The position numbers and the translations under genes are program-made. The notes beneath the pieces are model-generated. The model ran no database searches, was not told the DNA's origin, and saw only the letters and a list, made by a program, of their open reading frames with translations. From the sequence record SRR20825019_1726: DNA of 55,932 bases; one strand, 5' to 3'. This document shows positions 17,202-22,149 of the stretch, piece after piece. Positions within the stretch are counted from its first letter, which is position 1; each line of letters begins with the position of its first letter.

Positions 17202-17300
17202 GAGTTTCCTCCTCTGTGGCTAGGCAAAATAAACTGTGCCTGTGTGGATAGATTCCTCGCCCATCCATCGCGGCACAGAGGAGAGGCTGTGCGATATAGC
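17202..17300 (-). promoter_or_regulatory. Structured 5' leader of TBDR1 with anti-SD helix
   Basis: Perfect 10-bp inverted repeat 17274-17283/17209-17218 covers the SD. Inner helices and an alternative 7-bp helix are present. Confidence 0.65.
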
Positions 17301-18277
17301 CTGAAGGTTACAATCTTTTTATTAGGAAGATTAAAGACTAGATTGAAATATATGATGAAAAAGTGACAATTTGATCACATAGACATATAGTTATTACTAT
17401 AAGTTTATTTCAATAGTTTAGTTATTATGTAAAAAGACATACCAGAATAGGTATTCTGTACTTTAGTTATATTATTGAATCGAACCACCTAGCCTCCGGT
17501 GTCCTACCTAAGACATTCGATCAGGCATGAAACCTCATAAAATTGTTTAAAGATTAGAATTCTACCTTGATTCGAAGCCAGATATCGCCGGAAGCCGACC
17601 AGGGTGGGTCTGTATGGCGGGCCTCGTTCGTTGGTCTGAGTGGAGTGATGTATCCGGATGCCAGATAGGCGGGGTCGATACCAAGTCCGATGTGGTGTAT
17701 TTCACCCGCCGATTTTACTTGGGACCAATATGGGGCCTGGCCGGTGGTGGTCTGTTTCCCTTCAGCCTCCTTGTGCGAGGATGACTGGTTTAGTTTTGGG
17801 TAACGTCAGTTTAACTTGATCTAGTCTTTAGGTTTGTCTCAATAGTTCATTGATACTTTGACGAGTGATATTGCGCGAAATTATCATCGCTTCAAGGGGG
17901 CAGCGTGGGACAAAATCACGCAATTAGACTAAAATTTGAAACTATAAGCGATGTTAGTACAGCTGGTTAGGGGGCGATGGTGGTCTTTGGTGATTTTGGC
18001 AACTCAGCAGCCAGGCGAAACAAGGTGATTCATTTTTTGCACCCCATACGTGCAAATCTGCTCGCTCAGCATCAATATAAAGTAATAAACCAAAGTAATA
18101 ACGTAAGCTTTTAGTAATAATACCTATGTTATTATTTGTGTTTTTTTGGCCACACGAACGAATTACATCATTCTTTAAGTAGTAGTTCTTAAGGTTATAC
18201 GTTTCGGAAAATAAAAATATGTCGCTACTCCTTCCTCTTCCCTCGTCACAGAGGGCTAGAAATCAGGAGGAAAGAAA

Positions 18278-21200
18278 GTGACAACTTTGTCCAATAAAGC
18301 TCGGAAGGCTCAGCTGTTGGGTGGCACTGGTATTGCTGCTGCGCTGGCGCTTTCACTTACAGGCGCTGTATCTGCACAGGATGCTGCTGCCGACGAAACT
18401 ACCTTTGAAGAAGTGGTGGTAACAGGGTCACGTATCGTGTCTCCAGACATCTCTTCCGTATCCCCAGTACACGTAATCGGCGGCGAGATGATTCGTCAGT
18501 CCGGTGTTGCAAACATTCAGGACCTGCTGCTTGAAAGCCCACAGTTTGGTGTTCCAGGCCTTAGCCGTTCCAACTCTGCGTTCCTGACGTCAGGTACCGG
18601 TGCTGCAACTGTTGACCTTCGTGACCTCGGTTCAGACCGTACGCTCGTGCTTTTCAATGGCCGTCGCGTTGTGTCTGGTCGCCCAGGTACAGCAACGGTT
18701 GACCTGAACATCGTTCCAACCCAGTTCATCGAGCGTGTAGACGTTCTGACAGGTGGCGCGTCATCTCTTTATGGTTCTGATGCTGTTGCGGGTGTTGTTA
18801 ACTTCGTCTTTAAGAAAGACTTTGAAGGCATCGAAGCCAGCGCACAGTACGGCGTGACCGAAGAAGGTGATGACGAGAACTATCAAGCGAACATCACTGT
18901 TGGCAGCAACTTCGCTGACGACCGTGGTAACATGATGTTCCACATCGGTTACACCGACCAGAAGGGTGTTCTGTCCCGCGAGCGTGAAAACACGCAAATG
19001 GATGATATCGACCTCTTCCGTCTGACCGGCGACCCAGCAGACTTCGGTACGTCATCTGCACCGTTCTTGTCTAGTTTCCCTCCACAAGGCCGTTTCGATA
19101 CAGGCAGCGGTTCCACCTGGACATTTGATGCAGACAACAACCTGCGTCCATGTTTCAGTACAAACGGTGGTACAGCACCTGCCTCTTGTGGTGACGCAGC
19201 TGGCGAGGCGATTGGCCCAGACGGCTTCAACCGTCAGAACTACCGCACAATTGCTGTGCCGGTTGAGCGTTATCTGATGGCAACGCGCGGTCACTATGAG
19301 GTGACTGAAGACATCACCTTCTTTGCTGAAGGCACCTATGCAAACACCCGTTCTTCCCGTGAGATCGAGCCGTTTGCTCTTGGTTCCGACAATATCTACC
19401 CAGCTTCCGGCGGCTTGATGAACATTGAGACAATGGTAGGCGGCACCATGATGGTGAACCCACTGATCCCAACGGCGATTGTGAACGATGCGGTTGATAG
19501 CGATGGTGACGGTTTCCGTGACATCAGCTTCGCCCGGCGTCTGCTTGAGTTCGGTACCCGTAACGGTAGCGTAAACCGCGATACTTTCCGTTTCTCGGCT
19601 GGTTTCGAAGGTTCCTTCATGGACGACAAGTTCAACTGGGATGTTGCTTATACATATGGCCGCACCAGTGAATCACAGCAGTCCAACGGCCAGGTTAACG
19701 TTCTGAACTTCGCAAGCGCGCTTGCAGCTGTTCAAGACGTAAACGACCTTGATAACGACGGTTCAACAACGGATGCTATCTGTGCGAGCGCTGACGCCCG
19801 TGCACAAGGTTGTGTACCTGTAAACATTTGGGGCCATAACTCAGCGTCTCAGGCCGCGATCAACTACATCGCTGCTGACCAGACACTTGAAACACGTATT
19901 TCACAACAAGTGATCAACGCCAACATCTCTGGCGCGCTGTTTGAAATGCCTGCTGGTCCACTGGGTGTTGCTATCGGTGGTGAATACCGTAAAGAGACAA
20001 GCTCAGCGAACAACGATGCCCTCACAAATGCTGGCCTGAACGCGGGTAACGCGCTTCCGGATACATTTGGTAGCTTCGATGTTAAAGAACTGTACGCTGA
20101 GGTGAACATTCCAATCCTCGCAGATCTGCCTTTCGCTGAGAGCATGAACCTGCGTGCGGCTGGTCGTCTCTCTGACTACTCCACTGTTGGCACGGTATAC
20201 ACCTACAGCCTTGGCCTTGACTGGTCCCCGATTGAAGACGTCAAGTTCCGTGGTACATACGCTCGTTCCGTACGTGCTCCGAACATTGGTGAGCTTTACA
20301 CTGGCCCGTCACAAACCTTCCCATCAGGCCTCACAGACCCATGTGCCGGCATTGGCGCAACGGGTGGTGGTGCAGCAGGTGATAACTGTCGTGCGGATGC
20401 TGGCGTTCTCGCTAACATCGCGGCAAACGGCACATTCACGCTGAACCAGTCTGATCTTCAGGGTATCAGCGGCTTCAACAGCGGTAACGCTGACCTCTTT
20501 GAAGAGAAGTCTGACTCGATCACTCTCGGTGTTGTCATCACGCCAAACAGCGTTGAAATGCTCCGCAATTTCACTGTGACGGTTGATTACTTCAACATCG
20601 AAATCGAAGACGCGATCGTGGCACCGCCACGTCAGTTCATCCTCGACCAGTGTTATGGTCAGGGCGAGCAGTCCTTCTGTGACCTGATCGAGCGCCGTGC
20701 GGCCCCAACCGCTACCAACAGTGCTGGTTCGCTTGAGTTCATCAACGCGCCTCTCTTCAACGGTGGTGCGCTGAAAACTGAAGGTCTGGACGTTTCGATC
20801 CGCCACATGACGAGCCTTGAAGGCCTCGGCATCACCGGTGACCTGCGTTCAAGCATCGTTTATACCAACTACTTCAACGGCTACACAGTTCCAATTCCTG
20901 GCGCTGACCGTGACCCGTTTGTTGGTGAAATCGGCGATCCCAAGCACCGTTTCACAGCGAACATGACCTATAGCCATGAGCGTTTTGATATCGGCCTGAC
21001 CGGTACTTACCTTGGTAAGTCCTACGAAGATGACCAGTTCCTGGCTGCCTTCGGTCTTGAGCCAGACGATATCTCCGTGGGTGCAGAGATCTATCTCGAC
21101 CTGAACGCTGCCTTCCGCATCAACGACACTGTTGAAGTTTATGGCGGTATCGACAACCTGCTCGACAACAAAGCACCAAACCTGCTTTCCGGTACAACAT

Positions 21201-21286
21201 TCAACGTAACCGGTACAGATACGGCAGCTGACGTTTACGATGTACTTGGTCGTCGCTTCTTCTTCGGTGCGCGGGTTAAGTTCTAA
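18278..21286 (+). CDS. TonB-dependent receptor (TBDR2)
   Basis: GTG start after AGGAGG, EEVVVTGS, ERVDVLTGGASSLYGSDAVAGVVNF, C-terminal F. Confidence 0.96.
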   Translation: MTTLSNKARKAQLLGGTGIAAALALSLTGAVSAQDAAADETTFEEVVVTGSRIVSPDISSVSPVHVIGGEMIRQSGVANIQDLLLESPQFGVPGLSRSNSAFLTSGTGAATVDLRDLGSDRTLVLFNGRRVVSGRPGTATVDLNIVPTQFIERVDVLTGGASSLYGSDAVAGVVNFVFKKDFEGIEASAQYGVTEEGDDENYQANITVGSNFADDRGNMMFHIGYTDQKGVLSRERENTQMDDIDLFRLTGDPADFGTSSAPFLSSFPPQGRFDTGSGSTWTFDADNNLRPCFSTNGGTAPASCGDAAGEAIGPDGFNRQNYRTIAVPVERYLMATRGHYEVTEDITFFAEGTYANTRSSREIEPFALGSDNIYPASGGLMNIETMVGGTMMVNPLIPTAIVNDAVDSDGDGFRDISFARRLLEFGTRNGSVNRDTFRFSAGFEGSFMDDKFNWDVAYTYGRTSESQQSNGQVNVLNFASALAAVQDVNDLDNDGSTTDAICASADARAQGCVPVNIWGHNSASQAAINYIAADQTLETRISQQVINANISGALFEMPAGPLGVAIGGEYRKETSSANNDALTNAGLNAGNALPDTFGSFDVKELYAEVNIPILADLPFAESMNLRAAGRLSDYSTVGTVYTYSLGLDWSPIEDVKFRGTYARSVRAPNIGELYTGPSQTFPSGLTDPCAGIGATGGGAAGDNCRADAGVLANIAANGTFTLNQSDLQGISGFNSGNADLFEEKSDSITLGVVITPNSVEMLRNFTVTVDYFNIEIEDAIVAPPRQFILDQCYGQGEQSFCDLIERRAAPTATNSAGSLEFINAPLFNGGALKTEGLDVSIRHMTSLEGLGITGDLRSSIVYTNYFNGYTVPIPGADRDPFVGEIGDPKHRFTANMTYSHERFDIGLTGTYLGKSYEDDQFLAAFGLEPDDISVGAEIYLDLNAAFRINDTVEVYGGIDNLLDNKAPNLLSGTTFNVTGTDTAADVYDVLGRRFFFGARVKF

Positions 21287-21302
21287 GCACTGATGCAATA
21301 TA

Positions 21303-21361
21303 GAGACAGCCTTCAGGGGCTGTCTCCACTATGGAAAGCCCCGCTTCAAGCGGGGCTTTTT
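21303..21361 (+). terminator. 3' hairpin plus intrinsic terminator of TBDR2
   Basis: gagacagcc/ggctgtctc, then aaagccccgct-tca-agcggggctt-T run. Confidence 0.9.
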
Positions 21362-21367
21362 GCGTGT

Positions 21368-21511
21368 AAAAAAGGCATGCACCGGAGGGGTGCATGCCAA
21401 GGATGAGGTTGTATACTCAACTGTGCCGCCATGCGGCACGAGGAACGAGATTTGTGCCGGGGTACAAGCCGGTTAACGGACACGACAGGATTAGCCTGCA
21501 ACCCCGGCACA
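21368..21511 (-). ncRNA. Candidate small RNA with three stem-loops ending in an intrinsic terminator
   Basis: 11-bp stem 21453-21463/21501-21511 extends by G-U pairs only on the minus strand. 7-bp hairpin 21423-21439. 10-bp hairpin 21374-21398 followed by U6 on the minus strand. Confidence 0.6.
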
Positions 21512-21597
21512 TGACCAAACTTCAGCCCGAATTTCAATAAGGACCTTCTGCGTGATCACATCTGATACGCGGCTGGTACGGCGTGCCCTTCGTCAAA

Positions 21598-22149
21598 CTA
21601 TCGGTGTGCGAGGAAAATAATCCGCTGTTGCCCCTGTTTGCGGTCATCAAGGATCTGCAAACCAGTTGGCAACTCCGAGCTGTCATCGCTCGCCAGCTCG
21701 CAAACGATAACCCCGTCTAGGCTAAGCCAATCACCCGCTGTGATGGCTTCAAGGGTGGGCGAAACCAGACCCTGCCGGTACGGCGGGTCCATAAAAATGA
21801 AGTCGAATGTTTCTTTTGCGGGCGGCAGTTTGCTGGCGTCAAGCGGCATGACGGTGCAATCAGCCTGCGCTTTCAGCGCTTCGATATTGCCTTTGATGCA
21901 ATCAAGCGACGTGCGGGCTTTTTCAACAAACGTGGCGTGCGCGGCGCCGCGCGACAGAGCCTCAAGCCCAAGCGCGCCGGTCCCCGCGAATAGGTCGAGC
22001 ACTTTTGCACCCTGCATGTCCGGATAACGTGAATGGGTGAGCATGGAGAACAGGCGTTCCCGCATTCGGTCTGTGGTGGGGCGGATATCGCGACCATCAG
22101 GCACATTCAACCGCCGCCCACGATATAGGCCTGCGATGATGCGTGTCAT
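21598..22149 (-). CDS. rsmD: 16S rRNA m2G966 methyltransferase
   Basis: RIIAG..RGR, RPTTDR.RE.LF, LDLFAGTGALG.EALSRGA, DPPY. Confidence 0.97.
   Translation of the reverse strand: MTRIIAGLYRGRRLNVPDGRDIRPTTDRMRERLFSMLTHSRYPDMQGAKVLDLFAGTGALGLEALSRGAAHATFVEKARTSLDCIKGNIEALKAQADCTVMPLDASKLPPAKETFDFIFMDPPYRQGLVSPTLEAITAGDWLSLDGVIVCELASDDSSELPTGLQILDDRKQGQQRIIFLAHR

Follow-up and report, generated by a model that had tools for sequence, protein, structure and literature searches.

Does a small RNA (sRNA) that is encoded beside two receptor genes switch these receptors, and if so, by which contact? The question is raised by a stretch of DNA of 55,932 nucleotides (sequence record SRR20825019_1726), here called the window. 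It contains the genes of two TonB-dependent receptors, TBDR1 and TBDR2. They are divergently transcribed from a spacer of 1076 bp, and their products share 29% identity. Beyond TBDR2, and convergent with it, lies rsmD, the gene of a 16S rRNA methyltransferase. An initial annotation had proposed that a single RNA, read from the minus strand between rsmD and TBDR2, could open the message of TBDR1 and block that of TBDR2. Part of this proposal has stood: a likely gene, a TBDR1 leader predicted to sequester its own Shine-Dalgarno sequence (SD), and a complementarity that is not random. Energy, conservation and the entire TBDR2 arm speak against it. In short, there is probably a discrete, conserved sRNA gene beside the two receptor genes, real as an RNA gene and new as a family. 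As judged from the sequences, its match with the TBDR1 leader is a real, lineage-specific relationship that is best described as a look-alike hairpin.

That the minus strand carries an RNA gene is suggested by its conservation. The locus of genome G001 is 100% identical to that of the window. Between about 21518 and 21366, the sister species G013 is 94% identical, versus an average of 80% over the wider aligned stretch. A covariance model, built from two sequences, detected homologues downstream of rsmD in three further genomes (G019, 44.6 bits; G009, 33.7 bits; G014, 30.1 bits) and in one metagenome locus (L099, 29.9 bits). Together with window/G001 and G013 they make up an alignment of six sequences, in which 88.5% of the cells are paired as predicted, versus 79.9% in shuffled alignments, and 11 pairs are changed on both sides, versus 5.7; none of 500 shuffles reached either value. 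When the structure was slid along the alignment as a control, 31-50% of the cells were paired. Hairpin 1 has 13 pairs, of which 7 are changed on both sides, and 94.9% of its cells are paired. Three hairpins lie between rsmD and TBDR2, and one of them (21398-21374, followed by T6) is a terminator of the minus strand; this intrinsic terminator, a 10-bp stem with its T6, is kept in five homologues.

Three pieces of the RNA are both exposed and conserved: the loop of hairpin 1, CCUGUCG(U/A)GUCC, UCUCGUUC in the linker, and AACAACCUCA ahead of the terminator. In DNA letters the loop motif is CTGTCG[AT]GTCC; L099 carries it, and so do 9 of the 30 loci of rsmD in the genus. The linker part UCUCGUUC is kept in the six homologues; its neighbouring CCUCG is specific to G001 and G013, and the others read CAC. 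The piece AACAACCTCA of the CU-rich strand is invariant in all six. A gene for hfq is present in G001. The complement of the hairpin-1 loop, with at most one mismatch, is rarer in G001 than a reversed control (12 versus 29); exact matches are confined to the sRNA gene itself, plus one in G009.

As a family, the RNA appears to be undescribed and restricted to the genus. The whole window yielded no match to Rfam (release 15) at the gathering threshold, and the best matches by E-value look like the terminator only, with 20-25 bits versus thresholds of 55-60. A pattern scan of genome contigs gave 6 unrelated matches in Propionibacteriaceae and Acidimicrobiales metagenome-assembled genomes, none of them from this genus. 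Of the 80 metagenome loci that a scan for TBDR2 had kept, 24 were searched with the RNA model, and L099 was the only homologue. Two other candidates for the same stretch were rejected. A small protein is not what it encodes: the frame of 63 amino acids at 21346-21537 has no Pfam match and suffers 1-nt indels relative to G013. Nor is it a dispersed repeat; BLAST with a stretch of 334 nt found elsewhere only the neighbouring terminator.

Where does this RNA begin? The initial annotation had its 5' boundary at 21511. Just past the stop codon of rsmD there is a bipartite motif, CGAAGG-N17-CGTATC, which we take to look like a promoter of the ECF (extracytoplasmic function) type. The regular expression C[GA]AAGG-N16-17-[CT]GTA[TCA] matches 17 of the 30 rsmD loci of the genus in the same relative place, while chance, by our own arithmetic, would give about 0.04 matches per locus. 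In G009, where another open frame separates rsmD and the RNA, the motif stays with the RNA, some 700 nt away from rsmD. Its travelling with the RNA argues for a promoter of its own; we infer that the RNA is expressed from there and that its 5' end is probably near 21558. Genome-wide, the motif is found 15 times in G001, versus 7 times for a reversed control, an excess of about two-fold, and a scan of these matches in G001 revealed no clear regulon. The additional frame of G009 (locus L024) starts with MNMLNNNHG and is seen in this genome only.

The complementarity to the TBDR1 leader is real as far as letters are concerned. The underlying strings are indeed in the sequence: 21445->21416(−) reads TTCCTCGTGCCGCATGGCGGCACAGTTGAG, 17283->17253(−) reads CTCCTCTGTGCCGCGATGGATGGGCGAGGAA and 18264-18275(+) reads CAGGAGGAAAGA. 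From the first two pieces, 30 and 31 nt long, RNAduplex reproduces the colinear duplex with −40.9 kcal/mol, and the leader is predicted to fold into the hairpin with the exact 7-nt loop CGAGGAA. In a scan of 27,946 segments of forty nucleotides, taken from both strands of the window and ranked by nothing but hybrid energy, the leader comes first among the non-self sites (−41.5 kcal/mol), followed by sites with −38.9, −37.6 and −37.2. The antisense alignment has a score of 24.5; of 500 dinucleotide shuffles made from the leader, 6 scored as high. By itself, the 9-mer has 122 matches in G001. In both G001 and G013, the two-block pattern CTGTRYCGC-N4-24-CGAGGAA is confined to two places, the leader of TBDR1 and the strand antisense to the sRNA gene. 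The first rank of the leader and the uniqueness of the pattern imply that the match is not due to chance. The hybrid energies amount to −40.9 to −43.5 kcal/mol in G001 and to −39.5 in G013.

Complementarity, however, is only one face of this relationship. In the same sense, the two stretches are alike to an equal degree. An alignment of CUCGUUCCUC-GUGCCGC-AUGG with CUC--UCCUCUGUGCCGCGAUGG has a score of 22.5, which was reached by 7 of 500 shuffles, and both stretches contain GGCACAGUU. In G001 the same-sense motif TCCTC(N)GTGYCGC(N)ATGG is limited to the sRNA and the leader; in G013 it has one extra match, inside a coding frame, the translation of which looks DoxX-like to us. Hairpin 2 (CU-C-GUGCCGC AUG GCGGCAC-AG) resembles the leader hairpin (CU-GUGCC ... 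GGCAC-AG) reduced to its outer stem, the inner 22 nt being absent. Since such a hairpin is self-complementary, a likeness to the leader hairpin yields complementarity to it, and vice versa. Even the 7-nt block is affected. The loop CGAGGAA is SD-like and also matches the leader's own anti-SD, and in our reading 5 of the 7 pairs of this block would follow from the likeness.

The energies become far less impressive when both RNAs are allowed to fold. Of the −40.9 kcal/mol of the hybrid only about −4.6 are left, since 16.6 kcal/mol are spent on opening the sRNA and 19.8 on opening the leader. The 9-nt block is located in a GC hairpin, a caveat that had been raised at the outset, and its opening costs 12.7 kcal/mol. 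The linker, described as mostly unpaired, is partly free only, with 3.8 kcal/mol required to open UUCCUCG. The 9-nt block does overlap the anti-SD strand, as claimed, yet only 5 nt of 17278-17270 fall into the arm 17284-17274. Cofolding yields a ΔG of −8.0 to −9.7 kcal/mol, depending on the leader window chosen. With −8.0 the TBDR1 leader ranks 12th of 31 windows resembling untranslated regions (UTRs), and of 494 random windows 31% bind equally well, so that an interaction better than with other UTRs is not seen. By accessibility-aware scoring, for which an IntaRNA-like heuristic of our own and not IntaRNA was used, TBDR1 ranks about 12th of 41 UTR-like starts, and does so via another site, the hairpin-1 loop on codons 7-10; all these windows and starts were taken from the window. 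In a matrix of 10 sRNAs by 10 leaders, cognate pairs are no better than non-cognate ones; with accessibility scoring the cognate mean is −5.9 and the non-cognate mean −6.5 (standard deviation 2.7, n = 90). With sRNA and leader locked in stable folds and an ordinary net affinity, the match is read as a sequence relationship and not as a demonstrated switch.

Comparison across species points in the same direction. No part of the family is less conserved than hairpin 2: in G019, L099, G014 and G009 its place is taken by a hairpin of unrelated sequence, and the linker of these four reads UUCAC instead of the UUCCUC of this species. Strong hybrids (−39.5 to −44.4 kcal/mol) are formed only between the RNAs and the leaders of G001 and G013. 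Among the orthologous loci compared, the pairing is kept in G013 alone; the cognate pairs of G011, G024, G002 and G008 give −24.9 to −29.8 kcal/mol, like non-cognate pairs. An SD-sequestering helix is predicted in the leaders of 6 of the 8 species folded, including G011, G024, G002 and G015. As these four lack the strong complementarity, the pairing is not the general way to open such leaders. In G013 the sRNA has a C->U change at the position of 21425 and the leader one at that of 17273, which put two G·U pairs next to each other in the 9-bp block. Within the hairpin of its own RNA, each change is wobble-neutral as well; the two, therefore, amount neither to covariation nor to compensation. 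Relative to G013, identity is 29/31 in the leader stretch, 21/24 in what else belongs to the inner hairpin, 3' arm included (17252-17229), and 150/168 in the promoter region; with neighbours so similar, the leader stretch stands out little.

The history of the locus is told by the other genomes of the genus. TBDR1 orthologues are found in 11 of 32. In 6 of these 11 (G011, G002, G003, G020, G024 and G015) TBDR1 is directly downstream of rsmD in the same orientation, and 5 of the 6 have the promoter-like motif in between. The hairpin-1 loop motif is found in three of these five loci; in the other two, the RNA is more divergent and has a terminator. In this species and in G013, an inverted TBDR2 and its spacer are found between the RNA and TBDR1. 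G019, G014, G009 and L099 have the RNA and TBDR2; searches of the three genomes and of the 8.9 kb examined of L099 gave no orthologue of TBDR1. This RNA without TBDR1 in relatives implies that it is not tied to TBDR1, though both often travel together: TBDR1 is present in 10 of 17 genomes with the motif versus 1 of 13 without, counts that come from related genomes and are no independent test. In 9 of the 13 rsmD loci without the motif (by regular expression), a patatin-like gene starts about 100-180 bases after rsmD. By these comparisons, the family seems linked to the flank of rsmD and, in many of the species, also to TBDR1 as its immediate downstream neighbour. At the rsmD loci L029 (G002), L031 (G011), L035 (G024) and L033 (G008), the 5' domain of the RNA is longer (GGCC-N-GAGGCCAAC), and an intrinsic terminator is not obvious ahead of the promoter region of TBDR1.

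The TBDR2 arm can be dealt with briefly. The linker does pair with the SD of TBDR2 at 10 of 12 positions, with −11.2 kcal/mol. The net energy is, however, positive (−11.2 + 8.5 + 11.4), and by accessibility-aware scoring TBDR2 comes last, at rank 41 of 41. The contact is also lost in relatives whose linker reads UUCAC, though the SD there is unchanged. It looks like a generic contact between an anti-SD and an SD, and a block of TBDR2 by the sRNA is unlikely. In the TBDR2 leader (18200-18277(+)), the SD is also predicted to be paired, with an upstream UCCUUCCUC around a small hairpin; relatives keep a CU-rich stretch upstream in this leader and a hairpin of different sequence.

What, then, is the RNA doing? 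Taken jointly, the observations are best explained by a genuine new sRNA family that has acquired a lineage-specific look-alike of the TBDR1 leader hairpin and acts elsewhere in trans. We adopt this explanation tentatively; it may well be right, and we would stop just short of calling it probable. An independently transcribed sRNA (21558-21368(−)) would comprise, behind its motif, the covarying hairpin 1 with its invariant loop, the linker, a variable hairpin 2, the CU-rich strand and the terminator. In the lineage of the window and its sister species G013, hairpin 2 and its flanks would have become a short look-alike of the leader's anti-SD hairpin. The hairpin-1 loop, the linker and the CU-rich 3' strand would, most probably, work in trans, their targets being other regions of translation start. 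Several points weigh against this explanation. A match so specific, right beside the gene, is hard to dismiss, being the best of all segments scanned and unique genome-wide as a two-block pattern. The motif and TBDR1 tend to occur together, and in the six genomes already listed TBDR1 even is directly downstream. Equilibrium energies ignore Hfq and co-transcriptional binding; with a nascent leader of 40 nt the opening costs 12.6 kcal/mol, and the net energy becomes about −11.7. Finally, linker, hairpin 2 and CU-rich strand are 53/54 identical between G001 and G013, while the arms of hairpin 1 are 30/37 and the 5' part only 26/53 identical. The hairpin-2 sequence thus seems to be constrained in this lineage, although for hairpin 2 alone our own binomial estimate gives only p ~0.06.

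The most attractive rival is an anti-antisense activation of TBDR1. UUCCUCG of the sRNA would nucleate on the loop CGAGGAA, GCGGCACAG would invade the anti-SD arm, and the SD would be set free; such a contact would be a lineage-specific addition to the repertoire of the RNA. It profits from the rank and uniqueness of the match. The minimum free energy (MFE) structure of the cofold picks exactly the duplex that had been proposed. The leader loop is free (opening cost 0.04 kcal/mol), the 7-nt seed nets about −5 kcal/mol, and in G013 no accessible site ranks higher. In the model, opening the segment from SD to AUG costs 10.5 kcal/mol; this falls to 8.5 when the leader stretch is blocked and to 7.6 when only the anti-SD arm is, a gain of 1.9-2.9 kcal/mol. 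All three substitutions of G013 in the two stretches are compatible with the duplex, and the 53/54 identity over linker, hairpin 2 and seed fits as well. Yet the net and cofold energies are those of the background, the 9-nt block is buried, and the G013 substitutions, none of them compensatory, are equally explained by each RNA's own hairpin. Moreover, the sequestering leaders of G011, G024, G002 and G015 do without such complementarity (hybrids of −25 to −30 kcal/mol, as with non-cognate partners), and the same-sense likeness explains the match equally well. We consider this activation unlikely. An evolutionary version of it would have hairpin 2 rewritten, in this lineage, into a miniature of the leader's anti-SD hairpin; the alike hairpins would swap strands, and the sRNA would thereby open the self-silenced TBDR1 message. 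This, too, is doubtful. If true, it would mean that an sRNA captured its target by taking over the target's sequence and not by slow evolution of a seed.

Of course, the RNA could also be a classical repressor, whose CU-rich UUCCUC in the linker and CCUCAUCCUU before the terminator mask the SD GGAGGAA of TBDR1, TBDR2 or other transporter mRNAs. A CU-rich single strand beside terminator and U-tail, together with an hfq gene, would suit this function, and so would the linker pairing with the TBDR2 SD. For the cognate pairs of G006, G056, G002 and G024, accessibility scoring puts a CU-rich stretch on the SD of TBDR1 first. The Caulobacter sRNAs ChvR (PMC6237742) and RusT (PMC11005374) are reported to act on TonB-dependent receptors or outer-membrane transporters. 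Both SDs, however, are predicted to be paired already in their own leaders, with TBDR2 at the bottom of the ranking; the energies, −5 to −9 kcal/mol, are weak and do not exceed those with non-cognate leaders; and any CU-rich stretch will match any strong SD, which means low specificity. Repression of this kind is quite improbable. As a decoy, hairpin 2 would mimic the leader hairpin and compete, without base-pairing, for a shared RNA-binding protein or nuclease. The same-sense likeness over at least 16 letters, unique to two non-coding places in G001, and the conservation of the hairpin-2 sequence between G001 and G013 could be taken in its favour, but a candidate protein was not identified, and in a palindromic hairpin likeness and complementarity are inseparable; we regard the decoy as very unlikely. 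Nearly the same holds for the idea that there is no separate sRNA and the stretch is just a structured 3' UTR and terminator of rsmD. It is true that scans between the rsmD stop and 21398 found no terminator and no sigma-70-like promoter. The promoter-like motif, however, keeps a fixed spacing upstream of the RNA and stays with it in G009 despite the intervening open frame, and covariation and invariant loops exceed what a terminator needs. We find this idea hardly credible.

Table 1. Features of the locus, with positions in the window
Feature	Position	Strand	Basis
TBDR1, TonB-dependent receptor, 1002 aa	14193..17201	−	Pfam Plug and beta-barrel domains
TBDR1 5' leader (presumed start); anti-SD arm 17284-17274 on SD side 17218-17208; inner hairpin with loop CGAGGAA	17202..17292	−	predicted folds
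Leader stretch complementary to the sRNA, also similar in the same sense	17253..17283	−	duplex and alignments; 29/31 identical to G013
TBDR2 SD stretch CAGGAGGAAAGA	18264..18275	+	unchanged in G013, G019, G014, G009, L099
TBDR2, TonB-dependent receptor, 1002 aa, GTG start	18278..21286	+	Pfam Plug and barrel domains
Predicted sRNA, ~190 nt; presumed 5' end, 3' end at terminator U-run	21368..21558	−	homologues and covariation
Intrinsic terminator: 10-bp stem, then T6	21368..21398	−	terminator scan; stem kept in G013 via wobble changes
CU-rich strand TATACAACCTCATCCTT adjoining the terminator; candidate seed or Hfq module	21399..21415	−	unpaired in MFE fold; 17/17 identical to G013
Hairpin 2 (GUGCCGC AUG GCGGCAC plus flanks), with 9-nt block at 21429-21421	21416..21438	−	MFE fold; 22/23 identical to G013
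Linker AATCTCGTTCCTCG, with 7-nt block	21439..21452	−	14/14 identical to G013
Hairpin 1: long stem, conserved apical region; loop motif CCTGTCGTGTCC at ~21489-21478	21453..21511	−	covariation
Promoter-like bipartite motif CGAAGG-N17-CGTATC, just past rsmD stop	21564..21592	−	read from sequence; regular expression matches 17 of 30 rsmD loci of the genus
rsmD, 16S rRNA m2G966 methyltransferase	21598..22149	−	TIGR00095, 163 bits vs cut-off 117.5; Pfam PF03602

Some features of the neighbourhood deserve mention in their own right. For TBDR1 and TBDR2, no NCBIfam model scored above its cut-off. The spacer between them contains all four copies of AGTAATAA that are present in the window: one upstream of TBDR1, at 17391-17398(−), and three direct repeats upstream of TBDR2, at 18081-18088, 18094-18101 and 18113-18120(+). 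Four copies compare with 0.23 expected, and none of 100 shuffles reached four. To judge from their arrangement, they look like a candidate operator shared by both receptor promoters. Similar repeats are found upstream of TBDR2 in G013, G019, G014 and G009. The ~200-250 bp of the spacer that adjoin each receptor gene are 85-100% identical to G013. The middle part, 17568-18078, which includes a GC-richer piece at about 17590-17790, cannot be aligned with G013 (10-24 of 40 positions identical per bin), and a further conserved element there was rejected for this reason. Between the sRNA terminator and TBDR2, at 21330-21360, there is a GC hairpin (AAAGCCCCGC..GCGGGGCTTT) with T-runs on both strands. 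Near-identical copies of it, 25-31 nt long, are found elsewhere in G001, and in G013, G016, G021 and G022.

The significance of the locus depends in part on whether the leader contact works. In any case, the RNA represents an apparently undescribed family; its promoter-like motif is unusual and conserved, and the RNA gene shares a small island with genes of TonB-dependent receptors. If the contact works, an sRNA would here activate the translation of an outer-membrane receptor, and the case would show that copying a target's regulatory hairpin is one way for an sRNA to gain that target. If it does not work, the case is a warning: alike hairpins will always resemble a strong pair of sRNA and target, as long as they are judged by hybrid energy or letters alone.

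How does the RNA compare with known systems? RusT of Caulobacter crescentus is an Hfq-bound RNA with several stem-loops and a terminator, the candidate targets of which are mostly outer-membrane transporters. It has 118 nt, is encoded between lolA and xth, and is conserved within the Caulobacteraceae (PMC11005374). The present RNA, in contrast, has about 190 nt and is found at the flank of rsmD; homology with RusT was rejected on grounds of locus and size. A precedent of the proposed switch is the leader of rpoS in Escherichia coli, where an upstream strand pairs with the ribosome-binding site and the complementary sRNA DsrA opens it (PMC2831331). As with DsrA, RprA and ArcZ on rpoS, a strand upstream in the TBDR1 leader is predicted to hold the SD in a helix, and the sRNA is complementary to that strand. 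Here, however, the pairing stretch is tied up in a stable hairpin, the net energy is at background, only two sister species share the match, and the whole arrangement is predicted from sequence. A sequence relationship to DsrA, RprA or ArcZ was not found by the Rfam search. ChvR, again from Caulobacter crescentus, controls the message for chvT, a TonB-dependent receptor, by direct pairing at two separate sites; it represses, does so independently of Hfq, and is driven by ChvI-ChvG (PMC6237742). Compared by description only, the present system differs in that activation is the proposed effect and in a promoter motif of another kind; what it shares with ChvR and chvT is a match that also has two main blocks.

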